DNA of 64,000 nt from Fibrobacteria bacterium (lineage in GTDB: Bacteria > Fibrobacterota > Fibrobacteria > UBA11236). Position 1 is the stretch's first letter. Each line of letters starts with the position of its first letter. Below the pieces are notes generated by a model. It searched no databases, was not told the DNA's origin, and saw nothing but the letters and a program-made list of their open reading frames with translations. The position numbers and the translations under genes are program-made. Below are positions 11,678 to 61,258 of the stretch, in pieces. The stretch covers positions 80,505 to 144,504 of the forward strand of contig JAYTSD010000045.1 of NCBI GenBank assembly GCA_043745805.1. The letters run 5' to 3'.

Positions 11678-12943
11678 TTACTTGATAAAGTTTTTTAGAG
11701 AAAGTCCTTCGAAATAAATATTGTCCAACCACAAAACTACAGTATCGCCAGCCTTGGATTCAGGTTTTTCTGCGGTAAAGTCAAGTGTTTGCATTTCAGA
11801 AGCAACTTGCTTCCATGTATAATTTTTCAATTCTGGCAGGGCATTTTTAGGAAGGCGTAGAGAGTCCACGGGGATGGTGAAATGAGTCCATTGTGTAGGC
11901 AAGGAGAGAGGATAATAAAATTGTGTGGAATCTTGAAAGAGACGACTAATAGTTTTACTCAAAAACTTCACATTAATGATACCTTTGCCTTTGGCCCAAA
12001 AGGAGAGGGCTCGCACATCAGTAAAATCATAAACATCGCCTTGTAACGCATTACCAATATTGAAACCCATGATAGACCAAGGGCTAGCAATTTTGTTACC
12101 TAAAATATATTCCGCACGCAAGCTAGATCCACTATACGCTTCACTATCCGAAATGTTTTCGATGCGAATAGAAGAATTACCATTTTCTTTAATATCGGTG
12201 ACGCTATACCATAATCCATTACCGATAATACGCCCGAAAGTGGTTTGTTTCCAACCTTGTTCAAAATCATCAATAGGGATATTGCTTATGGAAGCATGTA
12301 GGTTTACGCTATCATTTTTATTTCCCGCAGCAATGTTCAAGGATTGAGTGAGCGAAGGAATTACGATATTATGTAAGTTAACTTGAGCGATTAGTGAAAA
12401 TGTGCCAGCAGCTATATGAGAAAAGGCATAGGCTCCGTTTGAATTTACTTTGGTTTTGTAAGTAGTCCCCGCGATTTGTAATTCTTGTGCTACGCCTGAG
12501 TCCAAGGTGATAGATCCTGCGAGAGAGGCGAATGCAGCAAGTTTAAATTTTCGATTGGACATGATTTGATGGATATCTATTAAAGTATTTGCTTCGCGAA
12601 GCAACAAGCCCTCGGCCTGGCCGTCAATTTGCAGATTGCACCGTTTTGCGAATGGAATATTTATTGAAAAATGTCCGCTATCATCCGTGACTGCACTATC
12701 TAGAGTTACAGGTTTGCCGTCGGCGATATTAACAAGCCATTTAGTATCATCTATGAGTAATACTTTTACGCGTGCAGCTGGAGTACCATTGGAATGTGTG
12801 AGGCTAGCTTGTAAATCGCCGTTAGTGGTTTCGGAAGTCCCTCCCGCGATTGGTGAAATTTTGGAACAATCTATAAAATTTAATGTTACGGTAACCAAAA
12901 AAATGAAAACTAATCGTCTGGACTTTAAGTAAAATATTTTCAT
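11678..12943 (-). CDS. secreted lipoprotein with Ig-like/carboxypeptidase-regulatory-like repeats and a C-terminal carbohydrate-binding-module-like domain
   Basis: Signal peptide with FIDCS lipobox, a DSGHFSINIPF-type beta-sandwich segment and an aromatic-rich C-terminal domain ending ...VVLWLDNIYFE, which is CBM-like. There is a 4-nt overlap with the upstream regulator gene. Confidence 0.45.
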   Translation of the reverse strand: MKIFYLKSRRLVFIFLVTVTLNFIDCSKISPIAGGTSETTNGDLQASLTHSNGTPAARVKVLLIDDTKWLVNIADGKPVTLDSAVTDDSGHFSINIPFAKRCNLQIDGQAEGLLLREANTLIDIHQIMSNRKFKLAAFASLAGSITLDSGVAQELQIAGTTYKTKVNSNGAYAFSHIAAGTFSLIAQVNLHNIVIPSLTQSLNIAAGNKNDSVNLHASISNIPIDDFEQGWKQTTFGRIIGNGLWYSVTDIKENGNSSIRIENISDSEAYSGSSLRAEYILGNKIASPWSIMGFNIGNALQGDVYDFTDVRALSFWAKGKGIINVKFLSKTISRLFQDSTQFYYPLSLPTQWTHFTIPVDSLRLPKNALPELKNYTWKQVASEMQTLDFTAEKPESKAGDTVVLWLDNIYFEGLSLKNFIK

Positions 12944-13767
12944 TTTCCTTTTCCTCCAATTTTGGAAAGAGGAAAAAACTGAACATTGAGCTGATACGTT
13001 CTATCGGGATGGGTTGCGGCATTTACATAATTAATTAAAGTACCGCGAAACTCCTTTACCCTTTCGCGAATCTCAGTAAAATCATGCGCATTAATATTTA
13101 ATGTTACGGTAGAAACATCTCTTTGATTTTTAGGATGCCTTTGTATGGCTTCTTGGGAGAGGCGAATAGTTTCTTCTTGAAAGGCCTCGATAGCTAAGGA
13201 TTGCCATTGGGATCCCGAAGTAATAGCGGTATCGGTCATTTTATAAATACCAGCTTCATTTACCCTAACCAATCCCAGCTTACTGAGTAAAGCGATACCT
13301 GCTTTCGCTTCCTTTGGTGTAATGGGTGGATTAAGCACGGCAGCAAGCAATTTATAATCTCCTGTAAATTCATAATATTCTAAAACCGAACGTAGGGCAG
13401 AGTAATACCACTTTTGATAATAGGCGTATTGTTGAGCTACTAATTTTTGGGTATTGATATTTTTAATTGAAAGTAATTTTTCGAAATAGAGTTTGCTTTT
13501 TTTATGAGATTTTGATTTGCTAAAATGCACTAAGGTTTCAAAGTATTCCGCTTCTTTTTCTTTGAGCCCACAAAATACAGCAAATGCGGTAATGGATTCA
13601 TCGGCAATATGACGACTATGTAAAAATACCTTCGCTAAATAACTGGAATCTATTCCCACCTTATTCCCAAATAAACGATACGAAAAAAAGCTCTGGGCAT
13701 TTTTTTTCTCTTCGTAGAAATCTTTGAGATAAACTCGATAATCGAGGTATTCGAAAATGGATTTCAT
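12940..13767 (-). CDS. TIGR02147/DUF4423-like family protein (putative HTH regulator)
   Basis: The N-terminus MKSIFEYLDYRVYLKDFYEEKK...FSYR..., the approximately 275-aa length and the overall pattern match this conserved hypothetical family as I recall it. Confidence 0.5.
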   Translation of the reverse strand: MKSIFEYLDYRVYLKDFYEEKKNAQSFFSYRLFGNKVGIDSSYLAKVFLHSRHIADESITAFAVFCGLKEKEAEYFETLVHFSKSKSHKKSKLYFEKLLSIKNINTQKLVAQQYAYYQKWYYSALRSVLEYYEFTGDYKLLAAVLNPPITPKEAKAGIALLSKLGLVRVNEAGIYKMTDTAITSGSQWQSLAIEAFQEETIRLSQEAIQRHPKNQRDVSTVTLNINAHDFTEIRERVKEFRGTLINYVNAATHPDRTYQLNVQFFPLSKIGGKGK

Positions 13768-14084: not shown

Positions 14085-16244
14085 TTACCAAATTTTCCCA
14101 GGCATAACTCCGGTGTTTCCGGCAGGTGCTGGATTTGACCCTTGACCTTCGGCAAAATATTCGCCATTGCCTGAAGAGTAACGTACACCATTATTTTTTA
14201 AAACCATGGATGTAAACGCGCATCCAGCCATACTACGTACAGGAGGATATTGAGTGAAAAGTGGGAAGTCCGATCCAAACGAATCGCCAGTGGGTATGTC
14301 TCCGCCACCGGATCCCCAACCCAAAATTACTCCTCCAGGTGTTGAAACCAAGTTGGAAAAACTGGTTGTTGTCACTAGATTGGCTTGACTTAAAAAGTAG
14401 GTCAAAAAATTTCCATACTGATAAAGATCACCATTGGCTTTTACCACAATACTGGTAGTTGCGCTACCTTCGATAGTCACCCAATCAGATTCTGTTCCAA
14501 CCTGCGTTGGAGTGGTTAGATCAACACCGCCACCACGACCCCAAGCCCAAAGTTTTCCATCTGAAGTAATGCCTAAACTTTGTTGTTGTCCTGTGGCAAT
14601 CGCGACCCATTTTTTGCCAAAGCCAATTAATATAGGAGTGGTGTGAGTATTAGTGGTTCCGTCTCCTAATTGATAGTTTCCATTTTCACCCCAGCCCCAC
14701 AATTCACCATTCGCTTTTAGGGCTAAAGTATGTCCGTAATTTGCATAAACCTTGCGCCAATTTAGATCATTATTCACTTTTACCGGAGTATAACTGAATG
14801 GAGCGGCAATACCCATTTCTCCAGCTGAATTAGTGCCCCAGGCCCATAAAGAGCCATCACTTTGAATTGCTAAACTCTGGCGTTCTCCGCCAGTTCCTTG
14901 CATCCAAGTATTTCCAGCCACATGTACAGCAGGCACATTATGGGTTTTCAAGGCATCGGTTGAACCCGTTCCTAATTGACCCGAAGTATTTGCGCCCCAC
15001 GATTCCAATTGTCCATTGCTACGGATGTCCATTGCTTGATAATCGGCACCGATAAGTACGCCGGGTTTCAAATTAGTAGCCCAAAGATCATTAGTAGATG
15101 TTTTCCAAGGGGTAACCTTGGTGTATTGTGGCGATGTAGTATTACCAATGCCTAATTGCCCAGAAGAATTGTTACCCCATGCCGATAAATTGCCATTGGA
15201 TTTAATGGCCAAGGTAAATCCTTTACCGGCTGAAATATATTGCCAATCATTATCCGTACCCAATTTATTAGGGGTTTTTTTCAAGATGGAACTATTTCCA
15301 AAACCTAAGGCACCGGAAAGATTACTGCCCCAAGCATACAAAGTTCCATTGGCTTTGATGCCCAAACTATGTTTGTCACCTGCACTAATAGCGCGCCAAA
15401 TTTCAGTGGAGATTTTAAAAGGTTTAGTTTGATTAACGGGTTGTTTATTGTCACCGACTTGTCCCGAATCATTAAGTCCCCAGCCCCACAAAGTGCCATC
15501 GTCTTTGATGGCAAGTACATGACTTCCACCGGCGGCAATGTCTATCCAATGATCTGTGCTGGGCCCGATAAGTGTTGGAATATTATAGGTACTATTGGTG
15601 TTACCTTGTCCAAGTTGAGAAAAATTGTTTTTACCCCAACTCCAAAGCGAACCATCCGCTTTCAAGGCAATAGTAAAGCCTTTACCCGCCGCAGCTTTTA
15701 TCCAGTTATTTTCAATTCCAACACGCGCAGGGAAGGATTTTGTTGCACCTGCATTGGCACCAAGTCCTAATTCTCCGTCGGCATTATTTCCCCACGCATA
15801 AAGGGCTCCATCGTATTGTATGGCTAAGGCATGATCAAATCCCGCAGTAACAAATCGCCACCAGTCACCATCCCCAATAGTTCCAGGAAAATTATGATCA
15901 AGATAACTTTGCCCTAATTGTCCTTTATTATTTTTCCCCCAACTCATTAAACCACCATAATCGGCTATGCCCACAGAAAAGGAGTCGCCCGCAGCCACTT
16001 GCACGAAAAAATTATAACCGGTATTTACAGGATTTAATCGTCGTGAATACGTGCCGTCACTGAGTTCTCCCGAAGCATTGCTGCCCCAAGAGTATAGGGA
16101 CCCATCGGGTTTAATAAGTAAAGTATGTGAAGAGCCTGCCGCCATAATGGGAAAGGGGCCGGGAAGCCTTGTATCGGCGGAAAGATTATGAATTAAAATA
16201 AGGGATAAAAATATATACCCAATTTTTCCAGCTTTTTTTTGCAT
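14085..16244 (-). CDS. RCC1/BLIP-II repeat (beta-propeller) secreted protein
   Basis: Signal peptide followed by more than 12 repeats of the ...W(G/A)xNxxGQLG... type (WGSNASGELSDG, WGKNNKGQLGQ, WGNNADGELGLG and others). Confidence 0.8.
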   Translation of the reverse strand: MQKKAGKIGYIFLSLILIHNLSADTRLPGPFPIMAAGSSHTLLIKPDGSLYSWGSNASGELSDGTYSRRLNPVNTGYNFFVQVAAGDSFSVGIADYGGLMSWGKNNKGQLGQSYLDHNFPGTIGDGDWWRFVTAGFDHALAIQYDGALYAWGNNADGELGLGANAGATKSFPARVGIENNWIKAAAGKGFTIALKADGSLWSWGKNNFSQLGQGNTNSTYNIPTLIGPSTDHWIDIAAGGSHVLAIKDDGTLWGWGLNDSGQVGDNKQPVNQTKPFKISTEIWRAISAGDKHSLGIKANGTLYAWGSNLSGALGFGNSSILKKTPNKLGTDNDWQYISAGKGFTLAIKSNGNLSAWGNNSSGQLGIGNTTSPQYTKVTPWKTSTNDLWATNLKPGVLIGADYQAMDIRSNGQLESWGANTSGQLGTGSTDALKTHNVPAVHVAGNTWMQGTGGERQSLAIQSDGSLWAWGTNSAGEMGIAAPFSYTPVKVNNDLNWRKVYANYGHTLALKANGELWGWGENGNYQLGDGTTNTHTTPILIGFGKKWVAIATGQQQSLGITSDGKLWAWGRGGGVDLTTPTQVGTESDWVTIEGSATTSIVVKANGDLYQYGNFLTYFLSQANLVTTTSFSNLVSTPGGVILGWGSGGGDIPTGDSFGSDFPLFTQYPPVRSMAGCAFTSMVLKNNGVRYSSGNGEYFAEGQGSNPAPAGNTGVMPGKIW

Positions 16245-49527: not shown

Positions 49528-50229
49528 TTAATAGTATTCGCTTAAAATCACTCGCTGGAAAATTTCGAAATATTCTTCTCCGCGCTTTTCCATATCGAGC
49601 GGTTTATTTAAAAATTCATAAAAGCGTCCTTGGCGTAAAGTTTTATGCATAAGATTATCATCACCCGCAGGATTACCCGTGATCAGCACAAATTTTAAAA
49701 AGGGTTTACTTTTGTGGATTAAATCGCAAAGTTCATTGCCGCTCATTTGTGGCATTACTTCATCAGTAATCACTAATACTACTTCGCTATTTTGCAAAAT
49801 AAATTGTGCCGCTTCTTGTGGGTTTTGAAAGGTTTTTAAATTCAGGCGCTTGCCATATTTGCGTTTGAAAAGAAATAGATTATCCTCTTCATCATCTACA
49901 TAAACGACCAAGGGATTATTTAAACCATGATGTATACAAGAAAAAATATGATCGGCCATTTGCCCTAAGGTTTTATAATGCCCCATATCCATGGGTGTAC
50001 CGCGGTACATCTCCTGCATGGCAAACATCATGGCAATATTAATAGTGATGCCCCCAAAGCGATGTTTTAATTCCTGGTCTAAAAGGGCTATGGTTTCTTT
50101 TTGTATATGGCAATCAAGCAATGCGCATTCGCTATTGCGTAGGACTGGCTGTGGAACAAAGGCGGGATTTTCTCCAGCTAATTTGTCGAGTACGCTTAGT
50201 AAAATCTCAAAAATTCGCGGTGAACGCAT
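49528..50229 (-). CDS. single-domain response regulator: N-terminal ACP-like (serine-less) domain fused to a CheY-type receiver (paralog 2)
   Basis: The C-terminal half has all the REC hallmarks: DD pair (VDDEEDN), phospho-Asp (ITDEVMP), Thr (ITGN) and Lys (NKPLD). There is no output domain. The N-terminal roughly 100 aa align to the paralog at 57672..58349. Confidence 0.6.
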   Translation of the reverse strand: MRSPRIFEILLSVLDKLAGENPAFVPQPVLRNSECALLDCHIQKETIALLDQELKHRFGGITINIAMMFAMQEMYRGTPMDMGHYKTLGQMADHIFSCIHHGLNNPLVVYVDDEEDNLFLFKRKYGKRLNLKTFQNPQEAAQFILQNSEVVLVITDEVMPQMSGNELCDLIHKSKPFLKFVLITGNPAGDDNLMHKTLRQGRFYEFLNKPLDMEKRGEEYFEIFQRVILSEYY

Positions 50230-50327: not shown

Positions 50328-51299
50328 TTAAACTTGATTGCGAGGATGAAAAGACTTATGCGTTTCTCGCAAATAATCCTGATCCAAATGGGTATAAATT
50401 TGTGTGGTGCTAATATCGGTATGGCCCAGCATTTCTTGCACGGAACGTAAATCGGCACCGGCTTCAATTAAATGAGTGGCAAAAGTATGCCGAAAAGTAT
50501 GGGGTGAAACGGCAGTTTTAATATCGCTAGCCAGGCAAATTTGTTGTACGATTTTCCAAGCTCCCATACGGCTTAAAGGTTTGCCGCGCCAATTAAGCAG
50601 TAAAGTATTATCGCGAGCATTAAGGCTTTGTCTTTCGCTGGCTAAATATTGTTTTAAGCTTGCCGATACTTTTTGGCCTAAAGGCACAAGTCTTTGCTTA
50701 TTTCCTTTGCCTTGCACCATTACCACATCTTCATCGAAATGTAATTGATCAATTTGCAAAGTAATTGCTTCGGAAATGCGTAATCCTAATCCATACAATA
50801 ATTCAATTAAGCAAAGATTACGTGCCGGTCCAATTTTGTTTTCGCCATTATTTTGCAAGGCTTCCGGAAGTTCTGAAAGATGTGTATAAATACTTTGCAT
50901 TTCCACATGGCTCAAAGAGGAGGGCTTATAACGCTGTTGCCGTGGCGCGCGCAGGCCCATAGTGGGATCTTCAGTCAATAAATTTTCTTCGATTAAATAC
51001 TGGCAATAGCTTTTAATGCTGGAAACATAACGTGCTAGGCTTGCCGCAGCAATGCCTAAATCGGTAAGACCTTGGATGAATCCTCGTAAGGTTAAAGCGG
51101 TTAAATCTTTCACTGTGGGTTTATTATTGTTTTGCGCGAGATGGCGAAATAGTAAGAGTAAGTCGCGAGTATAGGAATCCACCGTTTCGGGGCTAAGCCT
51201 TTTTTCTAATTGCAATAAGGCTTGGTAACCGCTAAGTGACGGTATTTCGGGATCCGCAGGGGAATCTTTTTCCGTTAATCCTAATCCTTGTTTCTCCAC
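50328..51299 (-). CDS. tyrosine site-specific recombinase, XerC/XerD-like
   Basis: LLELLYGLGLRISEA box, R...HxxR...Y catalytic residues (HTFRHTFATHL...TTQIYTHL) and a length of 323 aa. Confidence 0.8.
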   Translation of the reverse strand: MEKQGLGLTEKDSPADPEIPSLSGYQALLQLEKRLSPETVDSYTRDLLLLFRHLAQNNNKPTVKDLTALTLRGFIQGLTDLGIAAASLARYVSSIKSYCQYLIEENLLTEDPTMGLRAPRQQRYKPSSLSHVEMQSIYTHLSELPEALQNNGENKIGPARNLCLIELLYGLGLRISEAITLQIDQLHFDEDVVMVQGKGNKQRLVPLGQKVSASLKQYLASERQSLNARDNTLLLNWRGKPLSRMGAWKIVQQICLASDIKTAVSPHTFRHTFATHLIEAGADLRSVQEMLGHTDISTTQIYTHLDQDYLRETHKSFHPRNQV

Positions 51300-51302
51300 G
51301 CT

Positions 51303-52298
51303 TTAAGGAATCCCTTTATCAATCACCGCTTTGGCCAAACGATGAAAAAGTGTTGGATTTGCGATGGCCTTACTTAAATTTTCGCGGGTTAAGCTCGCGG
51401 CTAAATCTTTATGATTGCTTGAGCACCAATGTAAGGTATAAGTATTTTCTGGCAAGATTTTTCCTGGGCCATAAAAAAAACGGAAAGTTTGGCTGGGGGG
51501 TATGGTGTAAAAATAATCGCTGCCAAGCCTTGTCATTTCAGAGTCCATGTGATCTCCGGCAATGCCCGTAGGGTCAGTAGGCTTGGACCCAAATAAAGCA
51601 AAAGCACGATTCATTAATATAGGACCGAGATTAAAACGAATAGTAGGATCGGTTTCGGGAATAAGTTTTAATACTTGCATAAAAAAAGCACTACCGGCTT
51701 CGCAAGCCAATACCGCATTGTTTAATTTTTTTGCACTCCATAAGCGCATAAGTATTTTATTAATCACATTAATAGCGCGACTGTCTTTTAAAAATTTTGC
51801 ATTCCATAAAGAGAGATAATAACTAAGTCCAAAAGCCGCGCCGAAAGGAATGATTTCGGGAGTGAACTTGCCTGCTACTCTATCATCATCGCATCGAAAT
51901 ACAGCTTCTTCACCAATGAAGGCGCGATGTTTTAATAAAGGTGTATAATCTTTAACCGTAAGGGTATCGAAATCTAAATAAATACCGCCTTCGCGCACTA
52001 AAATCAGATAACGCAAAATATTGCTTTTGCCAGCTAAATAAGTATTAGAAATGGAGGCAATGATTTGTTTCATGCTTTGCCATTCTTCGGGCAAGCCTTG
52101 CAATAAAGCCGCTAAATCAATAGGTCGAAATTCCACGCGGCCTTGCAGATTTTTCCAAAATTCATTGTGAGGTGGATTTTCAAAATGAATAGTCACTTTA
52201 GCATTTGGATTAGTTTGTAAAATAGATTCAATGGCAAGTTGATTAACAAATGGGAAATGTTGACCTATCCAAATGAGATGAAAATGATGAGGAATCAT
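51303..52298 (-). CDS. GT32-like glycosyltransferase (sugar-binding region with DXD motif)
   Basis: The start was chosen at MIPHHFHLIWIG, the canonical N-terminus of OCH1/GT32-type transferases, followed by a YLDFDTL DXD motif. The longer ORF-track start at 52406 adds a hydrophobic leader and overlaps the divergent gene. Confidence 0.5.
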   Translation of the reverse strand: MIPHHFHLIWIGQHFPFVNQLAIESILQTNPNAKVTIHFENPPHNEFWKNLQGRVEFRPIDLAALLQGLPEEWQSMKQIIASISNTYLAGKSNILRYLILVREGGIYLDFDTLTVKDYTPLLKHRAFIGEEAVFRCDDDRVAGKFTPEIIPFGAAFGLSYYLSLWNAKFLKDSRAINVINKILMRLWSAKKLNNAVLACEAGSAFFMQVLKLIPETDPTIRFNLGPILMNRAFALFGSKPTDPTGIAGDHMDSEMTRLGSDYFYTIPPSQTFRFFYGPGKILPENTYTLHWCSSNHKDLAASLTRENLSKAIANPTLFHRLAKAVIDKGIP

Positions 52299-52395
52299 AA
52301 TTTGCTTTTGGGGATAAACGGTGAGAATGGGTTGCGTGGCGAAAGTGTTTTTGTGGTATTGTCGGTGATCAATCGCATATAATAAGACGAATATA

Positions 52396-54498
52396 ATGAA
52401 AACCACGCCGAATGCAAAGTATTGCCGAACCTTGAGTAAACAATATTGTTCCTTAAGTCTGTGGATTTTTTGCTTCAGCTTATTTTTGCATACGGTTGCC
52501 GCGAATTCTTTCGCTCAAGATTCACTGAATAAAGCGGATTATTATCAGCCCACCATTCTAAAAGTTTGGGAGAAAACCATTGCAACCAATAGGGGCGTGC
52601 ATGCTTGGAATAGCGATAATGATGGCCTATTAGTTTTTCAGGAATGGATAGCCTCAATGATTTTAGCACGTCATAGTTCCGAAGTCGCACAAATTAAACT
52701 GGGACGTAAATTGGAAAATTATGTGGTGGGTGGAAATATTAAACCCTTAGGATATGTGGGTACCACCTTGCCAGTTCCAGGTTTTGGCGAGGGAGATTTT
52801 GATATGACTTTATTGAGTTGTATGACCTTGCTCGGCACCTTTGAACGCGACACTTTAATGTTAACGCATAAAACCTATGTGCATTTATTACGTCAGGTAA
52901 TTTGTCTTTGGGGACAAACTCCCAAAGAAAATTTCGATATTTTTTTTCTGAGTTTCCCAGAAACAGAAAATCATTTATTCATGTCGGAAAGTATTCGCTA
53001 TCTTACCAATCAAATATTGTATGAAAATCCTCGGCATTTAATTGCCATTAAACATTTGCGTGACTCCTTAACTCATGCCGGCATTGAGTTAAATAATAAT
53101 AATGGGGTAGTGCGGCGGTTACTATTAAAAAATATGCAATTGGTGCTTTCACGCGGGCTTTTTGAATTTAATGCAAAGGTTTATCAACGCTTTACTTTAC
53201 ATGCTTTGGATAATCTCTATAGCTTTGCTTCGGATTCAACCCTAGTGGCGGCTTCGCAAAGTGTTTTGCATTATTTAGCCACCAAATTTGCTTTCCAAAG
53301 TTTTAATGGTATTCGCTTTGGGCCTTATCGACGTAACTCGGAAAAATTTGCGGATTCCTCCTTAATTGACAGTGATGCGGCATGCAGTTTTTTTGCTATT
53401 CAAAGTGGCAAGTTTAATTGGGATAATAATTATTGGTTTGCGCATCGTTCCCATGCCGCTATGGCACTTTATTCCACGGTATTAAAATATAGAGTACCCG
53501 ATATATTATTGGATTTTATGCAAAATCGTGAAAACCCTTATTGGGCTTTATTTAGCAATGGTATTAATGTGGAGGCTAATGGTGGGCAAGCTTTGGAAAG
53601 TTACTATGGTGCGCCACATTTTTTGATGAGCGCTGGAGGTCAGTACACGGCATATGCGGGACGGAATTTTCCTACGCAGGGTTTTTGGTTAAAAAAAGCG
53701 CCTTGGGTTTATGATGTGGTAAGTCGTTCGAGTTCGGTCATTTTAGATCCGGCTATTAAGCAACCTTATGCTTTAACGGATATTCTGCATTTTAAAGGCG
53801 CACAATGGAAAGCCAATAATTTAGCTCTGCATCAAAATTTTCTGTATGGTTATGCCGAGGCTAGCCATCGTAAGGATTGGCCACAAGCTATTCCGAGTGA
53901 TTGGCAACAAGATGGGGAAATTATGGATGGCGGAGGATTTGAATTTCGCTTTTATGATCAAAGCCGGCAAGGCGTATTTATAGTGCTAACGCGCTTGAAA
54001 AACCTGCCTTCATGGCGGTTTTGGGAGCGAACTTCTACGGTAAGAGGCACTATCGAAGTGGTGGATACGGCGGAAGCTCATTCCCTAGTTCTTTTTAAGG
54101 CAAAAATGCGCCAACAAAACATGCAAACATTAGGTAATCTATTTACTGCAAAACGGTTATATACCACCTACAAGGGTGTTAAATTAACGCTTAATCCAAG
54201 CTATGATAATACCCATACGGGCATTGTAAAAATACAAAGCCCACAAGATAAGGCGATTTGGAAACAAGGGTTATCTCCAGTATTCAAAAAAAGTAATAGC
54301 TTATTGCAGGTGAATTGGATACAAGCCGATGGCTTATTAGGGCAGGAAATTGCCTCTGGAGATGGTCAAGGTAACTTACAGGTGATTAATCCGCATTTGC
54401 AGCAAGAATTAAATATTTGCTTTAAAGAATGGTGGAATCCATGGATAGTTATGCAGGCTTGGCCGGTCCTTGAAAACAATATCAATAATGTGAAATGA
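52396..54498 (+). CDS. large secreted hypothetical protein (700 aa), possibly polysaccharide-lyase/heparinase-II/III-like
   Basis: Signal peptide and a long Trp/Tyr-rich polypeptide. The family guess is speculative. Confidence 0.45.
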   Translation: MKTTPNAKYCRTLSKQYCSLSLWIFCFSLFLHTVAANSFAQDSLNKADYYQPTILKVWEKTIATNRGVHAWNSDNDGLLVFQEWIASMILARHSSEVAQIKLGRKLENYVVGGNIKPLGYVGTTLPVPGFGEGDFDMTLLSCMTLLGTFERDTLMLTHKTYVHLLRQVICLWGQTPKENFDIFFLSFPETENHLFMSESIRYLTNQILYENPRHLIAIKHLRDSLTHAGIELNNNNGVVRRLLLKNMQLVLSRGLFEFNAKVYQRFTLHALDNLYSFASDSTLVAASQSVLHYLATKFAFQSFNGIRFGPYRRNSEKFADSSLIDSDAACSFFAIQSGKFNWDNNYWFAHRSHAAMALYSTVLKYRVPDILLDFMQNRENPYWALFSNGINVEANGGQALESYYGAPHFLMSAGGQYTAYAGRNFPTQGFWLKKAPWVYDVVSRSSSVILDPAIKQPYALTDILHFKGAQWKANNLALHQNFLYGYAEASHRKDWPQAIPSDWQQDGEIMDGGGFEFRFYDQSRQGVFIVLTRLKNLPSWRFWERTSTVRGTIEVVDTAEAHSLVLFKAKMRQQNMQTLGNLFTAKRLYTTYKGVKLTLNPSYDNTHTGIVKIQSPQDKAIWKQGLSPVFKKSNSLLQVNWIQADGLLGQEIASGDGQGNLQVINPHLQQELNICFKEWWNPWIVMQAWPVLENNINNVK

Positions 54499-54801: not shown

Positions 54802-56178
54802 TTAACTCTCTTCGTGAAAATCAATTTTTGCATCCGCATGCACACTGAAACTTCCCTGTCCATTGATTACGATATGTAAACCAATTTTTTGTGTTTCTAA
54901 TTTTGCTTTTAAACGATATAAGCGAATTTCAAAATTTGGTTTCTTTTGTCCGGCTAAAAGATTTTGATCTTTTTTGAAACTGCGATATTCAAATTCCTTT
55001 TTGCCTTTGTGAATCAATTCAATTAAAATATTGCGTAGTATTTTTGCAGAAACCGTTTTTAAAAAAATTTTTCCATTTAAAATGAGTTGTACTTCTTGAG
55101 GTCGATAAATAAAAACAATATTCGCTTCAAGCTGACTAATTAAATTTTGATGCTTGCGCATTAATGCTCCAGCAAAAATCTTTTCATGTTGTGCCGCATC
55201 TTCGACTAAGTGCTTGAGAAATAGGCCATTTTTTAACTGGACTTTTTGATGCTTAACACAAGTCATGTATATAGGAGCGCTGTATACACACTGGGCGTGG
55301 AGCAATATGCGCTGGCGTAAGGGGCAGAAAAAATCCTTTTCCATAAGGATTACTTGCGCTGCGGGAATTTTATATTTCGCTAAGCTTAACTCATGGCTTT
55401 TTAAAAAATCAGTGAAGGCTATTTTGTGACCGTAACATTCACCGTTTATCCATAATTGTTGACCTTTAACGCGTACGGAATGATCGGGTAAAATATTATT
55501 TATAGAACGAATATCAGATAAATATTGCAACTGTGCAAAAGGCGCCAAGCCTAAAATTTTGGGAGCTTTTAAAATTTGGGGGCCGACTACAAAATCAAAA
55601 TTAAAATTAAAGGCATGGGTAAAGGTTTTGTCGGGAATATAAACTAAATAGGATTGTACTGATTTTTTTCCCTCCACCTTTTTTACGCGGCGATGAATAT
55701 GCCCTGGCAAATATTTTTCCGTACACACCGAAATCAAATCAAAAACCATATCATGTGTATCCGTGGCATTGAAGGCCTTTTGCATCAAGGGATAAAACCA
55801 AGCTAAAATTTCTTTACCAGGAAAATAGGTAGCGGCATTATTTCGATAAAGCAGTTTTTCTATGAATTTATTTGGAGAAACCCCCTTGCTGATTAAAAAA
55901 GGTTCCAAATCATTGACCACATAATAATTCCATCGCAATGGAATTTTTCCTTCACAGTGCCAAAGAAAATGCAGCAGCTCGGCGCCAATCAATATTTTAT
56001 CGGGATAAACAATAGGGTGTGCTTCCCAAAACTCTAAAATCCATTCCCGTGGAAATAATTGCAACATAGTCACATACGAGGCGCGGTGAAAATCGTGAAT
56101 GGTTAAGGGATCCTGCATGAGATAGCGGGTTTGTTCAAGGGGCGCTTCGTTATCTATCAGCAGTGCTTCTTTGATCAT
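54802..56178 (-). CDS. regulator with novel roughly 350-aa N-terminal domain fused to a C-terminal OmpR/PhoB-type winged-helix DNA-binding domain (tandem paralog B)
   Basis: The C-terminal roughly 90 aa (...LKTVSAKILRNILIELIHKGKKEFEYRSF...NFEIRLYRLKAKLE...IGLHIVINGQGSFSV) follow the Trans_reg_C pattern (L-P-E, LL, G, the RLRKKLE-like helix and the TVRGxGYxL-like wing). The N-terminal part has conserved Cys/His (CPLRQRILLHAQCVYSAPIYMTCVKHQ). Confidence 0.55.
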   Translation of the reverse strand: MIKEALLIDNEAPLEQTRYLMQDPLTIHDFHRASYVTMLQLFPREWILEFWEAHPIVYPDKILIGAELLHFLWHCEGKIPLRWNYYVVNDLEPFLISKGVSPNKFIEKLLYRNNAATYFPGKEILAWFYPLMQKAFNATDTHDMVFDLISVCTEKYLPGHIHRRVKKVEGKKSVQSYLVYIPDKTFTHAFNFNFDFVVGPQILKAPKILGLAPFAQLQYLSDIRSINNILPDHSVRVKGQQLWINGECYGHKIAFTDFLKSHELSLAKYKIPAAQVILMEKDFFCPLRQRILLHAQCVYSAPIYMTCVKHQKVQLKNGLFLKHLVEDAAQHEKIFAGALMRKHQNLISQLEANIVFIYRPQEVQLILNGKIFLKTVSAKILRNILIELIHKGKKEFEYRSFKKDQNLLAGQKKPNFEIRLYRLKAKLETQKIGLHIVINGQGSFSVHADAKIDFHEES

Positions 56179-56192
56179 AGGAGTTGCTTTCC

Positions 56193-57545
56193 TTAACCTA
56201 TTTCGCGGAAATCGATTTTCCGATCACAGATTAAAGTAAAAGTTCCGCGTCCATTTTTCACTATACTTAGGCCTAATTTTTCTTGGTCGAGTTTTTCCAT
56301 TAGGCGATAAAAACGGATTTCAAAATTGGAATTTTTTTGGTGGTTGGATATTTCAAAATCGGCTTTGAACTCTTTATACTCAAATTCAGTTTTACCCTCG
56401 CGAGTATAGGCGAGAAGAATATCCTTTAAAATTTTGGCGGGGGTATTTTTTACAAAATGTTTTCCATTGAGGGATAAACTTTGATCTTGAGCATGATAGA
56501 ACGCACGTATTTTATTTTCTAATTGCTTTACTAATTCCCCATGTTTTTTTTCCAATTCACTTTTGGAAAAGGATTTTTCTAAATCGGCATCTTCAACCAA
56601 ATGTTGTAAGAAACTGATTTTTTTCTTTTGCAACTTATGATGTTGCATGCAAATCATGTATAGCGGCGCACCATAAGCGCAATTGGCATAGAGGACAATG
56701 CGTTTGCGGAGTGGACAATAATAATCTTTGTGCAAATGAAATACTTCGGCATCGGGCGCATCAATTTTGCCTAAATCAATATCCAATTTTTTCAATAAAG
56801 CATAAAAAGTGGTTTTTTTGCCAATCCAATCCCCTTCGACATAGCAATCCGAGCCTTTATATTCGGCCTTTCCGGTCCATAGTACATCGTCTACGGTGCG
56901 TGTATCGCAAATATATTCAACGTTATTAAAAGCAGGCAAAGAAAGAATCTTGGAACTGGATTTGAATTGTTCTCCGGCCACAAAATCGAAATTAAATTTT
57001 ACCATATTGCTAAAATTTTTATCGCTACAATAAACCAAATAAGAATGTACCACATTTTCTTTTTCAACTTTTTTGACACGGCGACTTATATGTTGCGGTA
57101 ATAATTTCGAGGTAAAAATATCAATCAGTTTATAAGCCATATCCCAAATATCATAGGCATTAAATACTTTGCCCATAAGCGGATAAAACCAAGACAGTAT
57201 AGTTATACCTGGGATATACGTAGCTTGATTGTTACGGAAGAGAATTTTTTTAATGAAGCTATTTCCGTAAATACCTTTGGAAATTAAAAAGGGTTCAATA
57301 GCGTCACCCGTGGTATAATCCCAAGTGACAGGGACTTTATTATTCGCTTGCCATAAATGCTTAACTAATTCATCATCCGCAATGAGGTGTGTGCCCTCTT
57401 GAATAGGATATGCAGACCAAAACTCTTCCAGCCAATCCAATGGAAACTCAGCCAGCATGGTAAGATAAACGGAGCGTTGAAAATCATTAGTGGTTTTTAG
57501 CTTTTTATAAGCATTAGTCCATTTATTAATGAGCTGTTGTCCCAA
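56193..57545 (-). CDS. regulator with novel N-terminal domain fused to a C-terminal OmpR/PhoB-type winged-helix domain (tandem paralog A)
   Basis: This is a full-length paralog of 54802..56178 (shared blocks PFLISKG, SYLVY, FNFDFV, DYYCPLRKRIVLYANCAYGAPLYMICMQHH). The C-terminal ...NFEIRFYRLMEKLD...LGLSIVKNGRGTFTL matches the OmpR-type wHTH. Confidence 0.55.
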   Translation of the reverse strand: MGQQLINKWTNAYKKLKTTNDFQRSVYLTMLAEFPLDWLEEFWSAYPIQEGTHLIADDELVKHLWQANNKVPVTWDYTTGDAIEPFLISKGIYGNSFIKKILFRNNQATYIPGITILSWFYPLMGKVFNAYDIWDMAYKLIDIFTSKLLPQHISRRVKKVEKENVVHSYLVYCSDKNFSNMVKFNFDFVAGEQFKSSSKILSLPAFNNVEYICDTRTVDDVLWTGKAEYKGSDCYVEGDWIGKKTTFYALLKKLDIDLGKIDAPDAEVFHLHKDYYCPLRKRIVLYANCAYGAPLYMICMQHHKLQKKKISFLQHLVEDADLEKSFSKSELEKKHGELVKQLENKIRAFYHAQDQSLSLNGKHFVKNTPAKILKDILLAYTREGKTEFEYKEFKADFEISNHQKNSNFEIRFYRLMEKLDQEKLGLSIVKNGRGTFTLICDRKIDFREIG

Positions 57546-57671
57546 TGTAGCCTCTTTAAACGATTCAAATGCCTTGTCAAATCTGCATTTTTTTAAAGCG
57601 GCTTAAACCCTAAATTCGGAGAAAAATAGGGTAAGAGAAAGTAAAATTAAGGTTTTTTAAGTTTTGTAAAT

Positions 57672-58349
57672 TTAAAACTTGGCGAAGTAAATTAAGCCTA
57701 AAACCAAATTCAAATACTCTTCACTTTTGTTTTCTAAGTCCAATGGCTTATTAATGAATTCATAAAAACGGTTGTGACGCAAGCTTTTATACAATAAATT
57801 GCTATCGTCATCGGGATTGCCGGTGATTAAAATGAATTTCAAATAAGGTTTGGTTTTATGCACTTCATCGCAAAGTTCATTACCTCCCATAAGAGGCATA
57901 ACTTCATCGGTTATGACTAAAGCGACATCGGAATTAGTTCTTATAAATTCCAAGGCTTCCAATGGTTTAGTAAAAGTTTTGAGAGTTATTTTTTTGCCTA
58001 ATTTGCGATTGAAAACAAAAAGATTGTCTTCTTCATCGTCGACATAAACTACGAGAGGGTTTTTATTAGTGGTAACAAAAAGTTTTTCCAAGTGCTCCAA
58101 TAGTTTTGCAACGGTAAGATAGGGAAACTCGGTTGGGTTTAAATAATTTTCCAGGTTTAAACGTTTTCCCTCATATCGTTTTTCCAATTCATCTTTAATT
58201 TCAGAAAAGGCAACTTGATCCACACCAATATCTTCTAGAAAAACTTTATTCGTTTCGCATTCCAACAATGCGGGTAGTGTTGCGCCATTGTTTTTAAAAA
58301 CATCATTTAATATTTCATATACTTCTTGTTTTGCCATGAGAACCCTCAA
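57672..58349 (-). CDS. single-domain response regulator: N-terminal ACP-like (serine-less) domain fused to a CheY-type receiver (paralog 1)
   Basis: The N-terminal roughly 95 aa read like an acyl carrier protein (EVYEILNDVF...TNKVFLEDIGVDQVAFSEIKDELEKRYEG...LTVAKLLEHLEK), with the phosphopantetheinyl Ser of the DSL motif replaced by Gln (DQV). The C-terminus is a complete REC domain. Confidence 0.6.
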   Translation of the reverse strand: MRVLMAKQEVYEILNDVFKNNGATLPALLECETNKVFLEDIGVDQVAFSEIKDELEKRYEGKRLNLENYLNPTEFPYLTVAKLLEHLEKLFVTTNKNPLVVYVDDEEDNLFVFNRKLGKKITLKTFTKPLEALEFIRTNSDVALVITDEVMPLMGGNELCDEVHKTKPYLKFILITGNPDDDSNLLYKSLRHNRFYEFINKPLDLENKSEEYLNLVLGLIYFAKF

Positions 58350-58380
58350 TTATTGTATGCCATCAAAATTAAACCACAAT

Positions 58381-59556
58381 TTAAATCATTAAACTTTCAA
58401 TTTTTAATTCCTTAATAGCTTCTGCGGTAACGATAGCCGTTTTTATAATAGCTTCACGAGTAATTTCGGCGTGAACTGAAAAACGAGCAAAACTTTTATC
58501 ACGCGCTGAAGCTGGAGGAGCAAATACTGAAAATAAAATTCCTTTTTCTTTCATTTTTCCATAAAGGGCGCTAGCTGTATAGGGGCCTTTAAAAAATACG
58601 GATACGATTTGACAATTACTTGGACCAGTGGGAATACCACGTTGATTCAACTCATCCCTTAAAAGTTGAGCCATATCCATGCAATGCTGCGCTCTTTGCG
58701 GTTCCCGTAAAATAACATTCAAAGCGGCTCTGTGACCCGCAGAGTTTGGTTCAGAAGGTGAAGAACTAAAAATAATAGAGTGACAACGAAATCTTAAAAA
58801 ACGAATGGCTTGTAGGCTTGCTGCGATAAAGCCTCCATTGCCGCCAATAGCTTTGGACAAGCTAACCGTTCGAAAAGGTACTCTATCTTGTAACCCTAAT
58901 GAAACGGCTAAACCACCGCCATTTTCTCCAATCATTCCAAAGCTATGGGCTTCATCTAGTACCAAGGCGCAGTTATACTTTTCACATAAAGCAATGTAGG
59001 TGGGAAGATCAGCAACTGATCCATCAGTGCTATAATAAGCATCGATGCAAACAATTCCCGTTCCATCTTTTTTGATTCTTTTTTCCAAATATTCCGGATC
59101 ATTATGTTTGATTAAAACAGGTCTTCCTGAAGAAAGTTTCGCACCGGACCATAATGACGCATGCGCTTGATGATCAATGTAAATAGGCAAATCAGGTGTA
59201 GCTATTGCTTCTAATAAACCGACATTAGCGCACCAACCAGCAGTAGTTACGATTACGTCTTCGCTTTTGAGGCTTTTTTTTAATACTTCCCCAAATTTTC
59301 CATGTTCACCGGTGTCGGCTCCAAAAACCAATGAGGCTACGCTACCTGTGCCAATATTGTTATTCGCTTCATCCTTGGCTGCTATTACCTCGGGATGGCG
59401 AGACAAGCGCAAATAATCATTTTGATGTAATTCAATATAGGCTTTTGAATCTCCAGGTTGATCGAATGGATTCGGTTGATGGCCATCCATAAAATTCAAC
59501 CAGTCCTCATAATGTTTGGTTAACCATGGCGTTGTATCTAAATCATCGGAAAGCAT
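58381..59556 (-). CDS. CqsA/LqsA-family alpha-hydroxyketone autoinducer synthase (PLP-dependent alpha-oxoamine synthase)
   Basis: Block-by-block similarity to Vibrio CqsA as I recall it: LHQNDYLRLSRHP vs LQSNDYLALANHP; GWCANVGLL...IYIDHQAHASLWSGA vs GWNANVGLL...VYIDFFAHMSLWEGA; IVCIDAYYSTDG...CALVLDEAHSFG...NGGGL vs IIVVDSIYSTLG...CALLVDESHSLG...NGAGL; and the PLP lysine in SLSKA. The 391-aa length matches CqsA at about 389 aa. Confidence 0.8.
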   Translation of the reverse strand: MLSDDLDTTPWLTKHYEDWLNFMDGHQPNPFDQPGDSKAYIELHQNDYLRLSRHPEVIAAKDEANNNIGTGSVASLVFGADTGEHGKFGEVLKKSLKSEDVIVTTAGWCANVGLLEAIATPDLPIYIDHQAHASLWSGAKLSSGRPVLIKHNDPEYLEKRIKKDGTGIVCIDAYYSTDGSVADLPTYIALCEKYNCALVLDEAHSFGMIGENGGGLAVSLGLQDRVPFRTVSLSKAIGGNGGFIAASLQAIRFLRFRCHSIIFSSSPSEPNSAGHRAALNVILREPQRAQHCMDMAQLLRDELNQRGIPTGPSNCQIVSVFFKGPYTASALYGKMKEKGILFSVFAPPASARDKSFARFSVHAEITREAIIKTAIVTAEAIKELKIESLMI

Positions 59557-59698
59557 GGAACGGTCCTTTTATTATCTGTATAAATGGTTTGGATTTTGTG
59601 GTTTTTTGTGTATGTGAATGAATGTCTTGCTCAAATATGCTTCCGGGCCTTAATATTGCATTTGAAGCTAGAATTTTTGGCTTTTGAGGAAAAGGTTG

Positions 59699-61258
59699 AT
59701 GCTGAGAAAATTCTTTTCGAAGGATTTTTGGAATGGCCGTTCGGAATACCACCGAATGCTTTTTAATACTGACTATTCCTTTCAAAAACGTTTTATGATG
59801 GTACTGGTATATATAGGCGCACCAGCCAATATATTTTTTCATTACTATGAACAAGATCAAGGTTATCAAGATTCTACCATTGGACGTTATGCTATTTCTC
59901 TGCTATTAGTTACACTAGTTTTCCTACCGAAGATTATCAAGCAAAATAAATGGCAAATATCGTACTGGGAACTCACACTTTTCATTTTTTTCCCATGTAT
60001 GAACACCGCCTTCATGCTGATGAATCATGTTAATCAGTATTGGTTTTCCACCTTTATTCTGGATATGGTATTTTTGGGCATTTTTACCAAATGGTATATG
60101 ATCCCTTTCCATTACATTTTTGGTAGTGCGGCAATAACATGGTGGTACTTTCACAATACAGGATATGATGCGAAATTATTTCAGGCCAATTTAAATGCGC
60201 ATGTGGCAGCCTTTCTAGGAACATGCGTTGCATCGGGAGTCGTTTTAACTATTGAATATGTTAATAAAAAATCTACTGAAGCTAAATTAGCGCTATCTAA
60301 AGCGGAACATGATAGGCTCAGAACCTTAGAGCTACAAAAATCAAATGAAGAATTAAAAAAACGTGAGGAAATCATTAAGGTGTATGTGCGCCCATCCTTG
60401 TATGAAGAGTTAGCGGCGGGACATGACCCTCTCAAATTTCAACCTATTATGCTGCCTAAGGCGATTATGTTTTGCGACATTCGCGACTTCACTTATTTGA
60501 CGGAAATTCTTACCCCTTACGAAAAACAAACTTTTCTCAATCAATATTTCACTTTGATGAATCATGCCATTGTCAATAATGAAGGCGAAGTAGATAAAAT
60601 TGTGGGCGATTGTATTATGGGTCTTTTTCCTAATGGCCGCGCAGCCGTACATGCCGCATTGGCCATGCGTAAGGCCTTGCACACATTTAATAATATGATG
60701 TACAACAGTGGTCGTCGAAAAATCCCTAATGGTATTGGCATAGCCAAGGGCGAAGTGATGTTAGGCAATTTCGGATCTAATGAAAAACTAGATCGCACGG
60801 TGATTGGTGAAGCGGTGAATATAGCTTCACGCTTGGAATCTAAAACCAAAATGTATGGTGTGGAAATTGTGGTGACTCAGGATGTGGTCGATGAAATGCA
60901 GGGCTATCCCTATATGCGTTGGATTGACAATGCTAAGGTAAAAGGTTCGAGCCGACCTTTGCAGCTTTATGAAATTTATGGACATCAACCAGATGAAGTG
61001 ATTGCCTATAAAGAAAAGACTAAAGTCATATTCGAAAAGGCTTTGACTATTTATTTCAATAAAGGTTTTAAAGATGCTTTACGCATGTTTCAATCTATGT
61101 TATCCGAGGTTCCACCGCATAAATACAAAGCGAATGCACCCATGGATAATATTCTCAGCTATTATATTGAGCATTGCCGAACTTGGGTGAATGACTCCGC
61201 AGGGGCTTGGGACTTGCGGAATAAATGGGATGGCATTCATGAGTTTAAAGAAAAGTGA
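59699..61258 (+). CDS. membrane-anchored class III nucleotidyl (adenylate-type) cyclase: 6-TM N-terminal domain, coiled-coil linker and catalytic domain
   Basis: Six hydrophobic helices lie in the first roughly 190 aa, then KLALSKAEHDRLRTLELQKSNEELKKRE, then the CHD motifs FCDIRDFT, KIVGDCIMG and GEAVNIASRLES. The start was placed at the first ATG, which has an AGGAAAAGG RBS; the ORF-track TTG start at 59684 is in the same frame. The substrate-position residues look Lys/Thr, which is adenylate-cyclase-like. Confidence 0.8.
   Translation: MLRKFFSKDFWNGRSEYHRMLFNTDYSFQKRFMMVLVYIGAPANIFFHYYEQDQGYQDSTIGRYAISLLLVTLVFLPKIIKQNKWQISYWELTLFIFFPCMNTAFMLMNHVNQYWFSTFILDMVFLGIFTKWYMIPFHYIFGSAAITWWYFHNTGYDAKLFQANLNAHVAAFLGTCVASGVVLTIEYVNKKSTEAKLALSKAEHDRLRTLELQKSNEELKKREEIIKVYVRPSLYEELAAGHDPLKFQPIMLPKAIMFCDIRDFTYLTEILTPYEKQTFLNQYFTLMNHAIVNNEGEVDKIVGDCIMGLFPNGRAAVHAALAMRKALHTFNNMMYNSGRRKIPNGIGIAKGEVMLGNFGSNEKLDRTVIGEAVNIASRLESKTKMYGVEIVVTQDVVDEMQGYPYMRWIDNAKVKGSSRPLQLYEIYGHQPDEVIAYKEKTKVIFEKALTIYFNKGFKDALRMFQSMLSEVPPHKYKANAPMDNILSYYIEHCRTWVNDSAGAWDLRNKWDGIHEFKEK

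Follow-up and report, generated by a model that had tools for sequence, protein, structure and literature searches.

A CqsA-like synthase gene paired with a divergent gene for an adenylate cyclase bearing a CqsS-type membrane domain suggests a lipid-signaling module in a Fibrobacteria bacterium

The closest described relatives of the locus reported here are the alpha-hydroxyketone signaling systems of Vibrio and Legionella, CqsA/CqsS and LqsA/LqsS, in which a pyridoxal phosphate (PLP)-dependent acyltransferase is encoded beside a six-helix membrane sensor with a kinase output. In V. cholerae CqsS, W104 and S107 of transmembrane helix 4 (TM4) are the residues that discriminate the head group (PMC3376566). 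For adenylate cyclases, a receptor role of six-helix membrane domains has been debated for decades, and the best evidence for it comes from an artificial protein, the CqsS-Rv1625c adenylate cyclase chimera engineered by Beltz et al. (2016), in which CAI-1 directly regulates cAMP formation (PMC4821796). The same authors found CqsS and natural cyclase anchors to be only weakly and locally similar (PMC4821796), and a 2025 review still calls such cyclases synthetic (PMC12414865). We analyzed a 64,000-nucleotide stretch of contig JAYTSD010000045.1 from a Fibrobacteria bacterium (this whole stretch is called the window), in which a gene for a CqsA-like synthase is transcribed divergently from a gene for a membrane-bound class III cyclase with a CqsS-like domain. 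On its own strand, the synthase gene is followed by genes for a receiver (REC) protein and for two paralogous regulators, regA and regB. Literature searches on CqsA and Fibrobacter, and for broader surveys of CqsA/LqsA homologs, yielded no description of a native synthase-cyclase pair.

Based on the comparisons of sequence presented below, we favor, with a probability of roughly 55%, the reading that this locus is a module for the production and perception of a lipid signal and a variant of the CqsA/CqsS and LqsA/LqsS type of alpha-hydroxyketone signaling. The synthase matches the Pfam family Aminotran_1_2 (E 1e-32), and its top NCBIfam model is NF005526, alpha-hydroxyketone autoinducer synthase (289.8 bits, compared with 229 bits for bioF). 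Its top match among solved structures is V. cholerae CqsA (175 bits, compared with 145 bits for serine palmitoyltransferase (SPT)). In a neighbor-joining tree of 100 alpha-oxoamine synthases (200 bootstraps) that included E. coli BioF and Kbl, the window synthase fell into a clade of 38 sequences, called clade W, that was recovered in 199/200 replicates, and 11 genuine CqsA sequences formed a second clade (200/200). The split that places clade W together with the CqsA clade, apart from all other sequences including E. coli BioF and Kbl, had a support of 200/200. The identity of the synthase to BioF and Kbl is 23-25%. The synthase alignment shows no variation at the PLP lysine or in the DEAHS motif, and the protein is a catalytically intact alpha-oxoamine synthase that is CqsA-like and belongs to a sister clade of CqsA rather than to the CqsA clade itself.

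These results can be set against an earlier note on this DNA, made from the letters alone, which aligned the synthase with CqsA and proposed a phylogeny as a check. The grouping with CqsA rather than with BioF or Kbl is borne out by the 200/200 split and by the best NCBIfam model, and CqsA is its best match among solved structures; the synthase is, however, no CqsA equivalog, as it lies in the sister clade and scores 290 bits on a model with a curated equivalog cutoff of 428 bits. On the same model, genuine CqsA proteins (from V. campbellii, Ralstonia, and the CqsS-linked Pseudomonadales locus L036) score 546-695 bits, and members of clade W score 290-319 bits. The note had also called such synthases very rare outside a few lineages, a view that 727 homologs at E<=1e-30 contradict; they come from many phyla, and include members in Fibrobacterota, Myxococcota, Acidobacteriota, Gammaproteobacteria, and other groups. 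A linear plasmid of Streptomyces sp. NBC_01426 also holds a gene annotated as cqsA (L088 4857-6047), flanked by genes for STAS-domain and EF-hand proteins; no CqsS-type kinase was found near it.

The second line of evidence is the membrane domain of the cyclase. From Vibrio, Ralstonia, and Cupriavidus chromids, we retrieved genuine pairs of cqsA and cqsS. When the membrane domains of 11 cyclases were aligned by hhalign to 6 sensors of the CqsS/LqsS type, the match had a probability of 97.9% (E 3e-13) over 161 columns that cover the whole domain, whereas reversed controls reached ∼2% and MFS, MIP, and symporter proteins remained below 1%. A hidden Markov model (HMM) built from CqsS sensors alone and run against 8,586 proteins picks up cyclase orthologs at 4e-12 to 1e-5, and a BLAST search with V. 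campbellii CqsS finds them at 2e-5 to 5e-4. In the alignment, W115 and T118 of the cyclase correspond to W104 and S107 of CqsS, and the two positions hold W and S or T in 17/17 aligned sequences. The proposed comparison of the cyclase N terminus with CqsS/LqsS sensors has thus turned out in favor of homology at the family level, with the head group positions kept. As to the six transmembrane helices that had been read from the letters, the alignment with CqsS supports six, whereas a crude hydropathy analysis sees five strong segments and one weak one.

A word-index search with the cyclase N terminus gave no matches; an exhaustive search with its N-terminal 231 residues gave 34 proteins. Among the proteins with this membrane module, it is fused to cyclases, to hybrid kinases with the CqsS architecture (HisKA-HATPase-REC), and to GGDEF, PP2C, and Ser/Thr-kinase domains. 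With this range of outputs, the module behaves as a general portable sensor cassette that is not specific to kinases. In P0165, P0166, and P0168, the six-helix module is carried on GGDEF, Ser/Thr protein kinase, and SpoIIE/PP2C phosphatase domains. No synthase was found in the neighborhoods of the noncyclase carriers P0163 and P0160.

In the window protein, Pfam finds no kinase output (HisKA, HATPase_c), and the output domain is Guanylate_cyc (PF00211, 56 bits with a cutoff of 21.9). Counted from the ATG at 59699, the two metal-binding Asp residues (D260 and D304), the substrate residues K300 and T367, and the transition-state residues N374 and R378 are canonically spaced and do not vary among 12 orthologs. 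By these residues, the protein is a class IIIb adenylate cyclase with a complete catalytic set. Its nearest relatives of solved structure are photoactivated adenylyl cyclases, to which the match starts at residue 224, in the linker helix. The protein also has a C-terminal extension of ∼90 aa (60990-61258, residues ∼435-519) that is strongly conserved in orthologs, with many invariant residues, and has no Pfam match.

The third line of evidence is the conserved association of these genes. A synthase gene followed by a gene for a 221-225-aa REC protein, with a cyclase gene divergent or nearby, was found at ∼17 independent loci, mostly from Fibrobacterota-type metagenome-assembled genomes (MAGs) and metagenomes, and in at least 15 related loci the synthase and cyclase genes are again divergent. 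The adjacency of synthase and cyclase, for which the earlier note had asked about relatives, is thus conserved. When metagenomes were scanned in the reverse direction, starting from the cyclase, a divergent synthase gene and REC gene were present in 5/8 full-length orthologs with usable flanking sequence. Among other class III cyclases, an alpha-oxoamine synthase of any kind was encoded within 8 kb in 2/67 cases, and a REC protein of this type in 0/67. Most loci with the module also hold a gene for a second REC protein of 233 aa beside the cyclase gene.

In two Fibrobacteria MAGs (L022 and L024), the partner of a clade-W synthase is a hybrid histidine kinase that bears a CqsS-like membrane domain. 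The N terminus of this kinase matches the membrane profile of the cyclases (77%, E 2e-5), with the N..YW.MST motif included, and the two loci have the classical CqsA/CqsS layout, here in a new phylum. Beside clade-W synthases, one sensor family is thus found on either output.

In another MAG, CTOTU41470, one contig (L053 4801-7306) holds a synthase-REC pair of a second synthase type (type-2, the SPT/BioF-like subfamily), followed at the contig end by the start of a clade-W synthase gene, and a second contig of the same MAG (L018 3-1712) begins inside a clade-W-type synthase gene. The two contigs are probably contiguous, which would place tandem synthase-REC pairs behind one cyclase.

The REC protein encoded after the synthase matches Response_reg in Pfam (39.9 bits with a cutoff of 30.2). 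Its phospho-acceptor site is complete, with the DD, D, T, and K residues found in VYVDDEE, ITDEVMP, LITGNP, and NKP, respectively, and these are conserved in 24 homologs. In related loci, the REC gene always lies directly after the synthase gene, and the two proteins diverge in step (Mantel r 0.68, p 1e-4). The N terminus of the protein is a helical domain of ∼95 aa, for which an identity as an acyl carrier protein (ACP) was considered and rejected: the match to PP-binding (PF00550) has a Pfam E of 0.18, and the hhalign match (P 0.004) is not significant. At the attachment position of the DSL motif, the Asp is followed by Q, L, I, F, or E, and Ser is present in 0/24 REC homologs. The structure model (predicted local distance difference test score (pLDDT) 55) is too poor to judge an ACP fold. 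The description of this domain as a "pseudo-ACP," given on first inspection, is therefore an unproven lead.

No histidine kinase was found in the window, either among the 38 open reading frames (ORFs) scanned with Pfam or by tblastn with four kinase cores. The part of the earlier note that reported no kinase here is confirmed by this result, whereas its wording that the cyclase and regulators stand instead of a kinase is not true of relatives, in which GAF-kinases or a CqsS-like hybrid kinase adjoin the module. Since the phospho-acceptor site is intact, a kinase is expected and is presumably encoded outside the window.

The products of regA and regB are 47% identical to each other, and neither has a match in Pfam or NCBIfam; they had first been described as two paralogous regulators with a novel domain and a winged helix-turn-helix (wHTH). 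The regA family has 34 detectable members, all annotated as hypothetical. From an AlphaFold model of RegA (pLDDT 88), the protein is predicted to combine a sensor fold like that of H-NOX or V4R domains, a middle beta-rich domain, and a C-terminal winged helix of the OmpR/PhoB type. RegA does not qualify as an H-NOX heme sensor, for which a conserved proximal His and the YxSxR motif would be expected; its family has no conserved His, so heme binding by RegA is unlikely.

Genes of the regA family adjoin the module in L094, L096, L097, and L108; in L007 their neighbor is a cyclase fragment, and L005 and L095 hold such genes but not the module. A weak Arabinose_bd match in the GAF-kinases next to some modules, together with the VirS-like fold of RegA, had raised the idea that RegA and these kinases share a sensor domain. 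This idea was ruled out by HMM and hhalign comparisons, which showed no relation. Genes of the regA family are repeatedly found with a gene for a small HATPase_c protein of ∼300-320 aa (L007 147-3593; L096 1310-7082; L097 226-1194). In L007 and L096, they also occur with genes for a FeeM-like N-acyl amino acid synthase and a heme-oxygenase-like protein (Haem_oxygenas_2), and L007 has five regA paralogs in a row.

A possible mechanism can be drawn from these assignments. From the chemistry of its family, the synthase would join an acyl thioester and a substrate of the amino acid type into an alpha-aminoketone, which would give rise to a lipophilic signal like an alpha-hydroxyketone. In a homodimeric cyclase, the CqsS-type domain would bind this ligand in the membrane, the coiled-coil linker would relay the signal, and cAMP synthesis would change. 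The REC protein probably links signal production or output to a kinase whose gene lies elsewhere. RegA and RegB would act in the cytoplasm as one-component transcription factors. Their predicted sensor fold is one that proteins with hydrophobic ligands typically have, and what they detect in controlling transcription is probably the same membrane-permeant signal or an intermediate. A more far-reaching proposal is that the locus represents the first native family of ligand-gated membrane cyclases, with a CqsS-type receptor that controls cAMP, the ligand-producing enzyme encoded next door, and regulators of the previously unrecognized regA/regB type that read the same signal. We hold this proposal tentatively and would put it somewhat short of even odds.

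Several findings weigh against a signal production and perception module. The synthase is not an equivalog of CqsA, as its 289.8 bits are under the NF005526 cutoff, and it is only 29-32% identical to genuine CqsA. Gammaproteobacterial clade-W synthases, which are 47-50% identical to it, lie inside a conserved cluster that resembles one for lipid biosynthesis, with genes for a fatty acyl-AMP ligase (FAAL), a desaturase, an aldehyde dehydrogenase, a sulfotransferase, DUF1254/DUF1214 proteins, a short-chain dehydrogenase/reductase (SDR), and an adenosine phosphosulfate (APS) kinase. The cluster looks like an undescribed pathway for a sulfated amino-lipid, and clade W is therefore not uniformly devoted to signaling. 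When the window cyclase is compared with CqsS alone, the CqsS-only HMM gives an E of 3e-3 and hhalign gives 15% (P 0.0017); its membrane domain is best described as a divergent family member, and the homology to CqsS holds at the level of the family. Three full-length cyclase orthologs with flanking sequence present (L104, L109, and L110) have no synthase gene nearby. Across loci, the synthase of the module comes from three subfamilies (clade W, the SPT/BioF-like type-2, and a PRK07505-like one), and clustering does not sort the membrane subtypes of the cyclases by synthase subtype, which argues against a simple one-to-one pairing of ligand and receptor. Synthase divergence correlates only weakly with that of the cyclase membrane domain (Mantel r 0.39, p 0.014); because of this value and the mixed pairings, co-diversification of the two was dropped as support. 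Finally, no cAMP effector was identified.

Some of these findings would fit a different role for the synthase, in which it makes a structural or specialized lipid, such as a sphingoid-like or sulfated amino-lipid, and the cyclase and regulators monitor membrane lipids for envelope homeostasis. Besides the FAAL/desaturase/sulfotransferase clusters around Gammaproteobacterial enzymes of the same clade, this explanation is favored by the type-2 module synthases, which score best as SPT/BioF, by a FAAL gene and a radical-SAM gene that lie between the cyclase and synthase genes in L014, and by the FabA/KAS/KR genes that adjoin P0160, a carrier of the membrane module. We nonetheless regard it as unlikely: the window has no lipid-tailoring genes beside the synthase gene, the module consists mostly of signaling proteins (two REC proteins, a cyclase, and transcription factors), its sensor is homologous to a known autoinducer receptor with the head group residues kept, and the Fibrobacterota-type synthases form a subclade of their own in the tree (177/200) that does not include the members from biosynthetic clusters.

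The lack of correspondence between subtypes is also what would be expected if the synthase and cyclase were only co-regulated, with the membrane domain binding some other ligand and with cAMP or the REC proteins controlling synthase expression from the shared promoter. The cyclase membrane domains of L010 and L053, for example, are 72% identical and the adjacent synthases 23%, many loci hold a second cyclase gene that adjoins no synthase gene, and the three orthologs without a nearby synthase point the same way. On the other side, adjacency has outlasted both the shuffling of gene order and the exchange of synthase subfamilies at ∼17 loci, the sensor is of the CqsS type and its partner enzyme comes from the clade nearest CqsA, and the pairs in L022 and L024 show a classical synthase and CqsS-like kinase within the same clade. 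We consider mere co-regulation improbable on balance. That the synthase is simply a housekeeping BioF, Kbl, or SPT enzyme located by chance beside an unrelated membrane cyclase is scarcely credible. The surrounding genes (purH, purC, a GidA-family gene, and def) are indeed housekeeping genes, and all alpha-oxoamine synthases share ∼25-30% identity; however, the tree separates the synthase from E. coli BioF and Kbl and ∼50 other family members in 200/200 replicates, no genes for biotin, threonine, or sphingolipid metabolism are adjacent, the adjacency with the cyclase is conserved and is depleted around control cyclases (2/67), and the membrane domain is not a generic anchor. For these reasons, we prefer the reading of the locus as a module for the production and perception of a lipid signal.

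The features of the locus and of related loci are collected in Table 1. All five ORFs of the locus were found where they had first been placed, and the gaps of 32, 127, and 15 nt along the synthase strand and the shared region of ∼140 bp that had been reported match our values of 31-43, 126, 14, and 142 nt. The range in the first gap reflects the start of the REC gene, for which the ATG at 58337 is likelier and is the one called on the twin contig L001. For the cyclase gene, the ATG at 59699 is favored by an upstream GAGGA sequence that resembles a ribosome-binding site and by a 519-aa twin in the database. A scan of the locus for promoters and terminators gave fewer matches than shuffled sequence and yielded no convincing sigma-70 sites and no clear operator.

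Table 1. Coordinates of the locus in the window and of related loci on other contigs
Feature	Position	Strand	Remarks
regB	54802-56178	-	458 aa; regA paralog, full-length match to the family HMM
regA	56193-57545	-	450 aa; predicted one-component regulator
REC protein gene	57672-58349 (from TTG); more likely 57672-58337 (from ATG)	-	225 aa from TTG; 221 aa from ATG; Response_reg
Synthase gene	58381-59556	-	391 aa; PLP-dependent alpha-oxoamine synthase; Aminotran_1_2
Divergent intergenic region between synthase and cyclase genes	59557-59698	.	142 bp, sequence read directly
Cyclase gene	59684-61258 (from TTG); more likely 59699-61258 (from ATG)	+	519 aa from ATG; Guanylate_cyc
CqsS-like six-helix domain	∼59756-60283	+	followed by coiled-coil linker
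Class IIIb catalytic domain	∼60461-60946	+	followed by C-terminal extension
Second REC paralog	49528-50229	-	233 aa; 44% identical to the REC protein encoded after the synthase
Loci with the module	window, P0002 contig, L002, L100, L010, L008, L014, L043, L053, L094, L096, L097, L103, L106, L107, L108, L112
Loci with a 233-aa REC gene adjoining the cyclase gene	L008, L010, L043, L053, L097, L100, L103, L106-L108
Synthase/CqsS-like kinase pairs in two Fibrobacteria MAGs	L022 7636-10659; L024 2615-5455
Gammaproteobacterial cluster loci	L015 7607-16557; L021 5445-15281; also L016, L017, L026-L032

The housekeeping nature of the flanking genes (the GidA-family gene is of the trmFO type) indicates that the locus lies in a chromosomal context, and the closest relatives of every component of the locus come from Fibrobacterota-type MAGs. 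The second REC paralog in the window lies ∼9.5 kb from the cyclase gene, past the far end of the synthase operon. Between this paralog and the operon, the stretch 50328-54498 encodes a XerD-like recombinase, a glycosyltransferase, and a 700-aa protein and may be an insertion. Other genes in the window encode an HD-GYP-type protein (HD_5; 5981-7357, + strand), a DUF4423 protein (12940-13767, - strand), and a 719-aa protein with RCC1 repeats (14085-16244, - strand); none of the three has an evident tie to the synthase/cyclase locus.

If the favored reading is correct, the cyclase would be a natural counterpart of the Schultz-lab chimera and would directly support the view that six-helix cyclase anchors are receptors, and signaling of the alpha-hydroxyketone type would extend to Fibrobacterota-like bacteria and to cAMP as an output. 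With a natural CqsS-type cyclase, a candidate enzyme for its ligand, and the residues W115 and T118, the locus makes this question testable in a native system. In addition, regA and regB point to a new family of regulators outside the Pfam and NCBIfam collections.

Compared with the CqsA/CqsS and LqsA/LqsS/LqsR systems, the locus likewise encodes a PLP-dependent acyltransferase of the same superclade beside a sensor of the same six-helix family, and the TM4 W/S head group positions are conserved, here as W and T. A response-regulator gene follows the synthase gene, as lqsR follows lqsA in Legionella, although the REC protein has an N-terminal helical domain that distinguishes it from LqsR. The synthase differs from CqsA in belonging to a sister clade, with 29-32% identity and a score below the equivalog cutoff; the output of the sensor is a class IIIb adenylate cyclase domain rather than the HisKA/HATPase domains of CqsS and LqsS; and the two H-NOX-like/wHTH regulators have no counterpart in the Vibrio and Legionella systems. 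RegA itself shares no sequence similarity with the one-component regulators that have H-NOX/V4R-type ligand domains (the N-terminal domain of VirS and the sensor domain of PoxR/DmpR); it differs from them in lacking a conserved heme His, in its extra middle domain, and in a DNA-binding domain predicted to be a winged helix of the OmpR/PhoB type, not of the AraC or sigma-54 type.

Among cyclases, the class IIIb enzymes bPAC/OaPAC and CyaB share with the window protein the six canonical residues and the preceding coiled-coil "handle" linker, whereas the input here is a CqsS-like membrane domain rather than BLUF or MASE, and the conserved C-terminal extension of ∼90 aa is an addition. Another parallel is the chimera of Beltz et al., which also joins a CqsS-type six-helix receptor through a helical linker to a class III cyclase. 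The catalytic domain here is of class IIIb, has a Thr as its substrate-position residue, and most resembles the photoactivated cyclases, in contrast to the class IIIa domain of Rv1625c; and the protein described here, unlike the chimera, is natural and genetically linked to a synthase.

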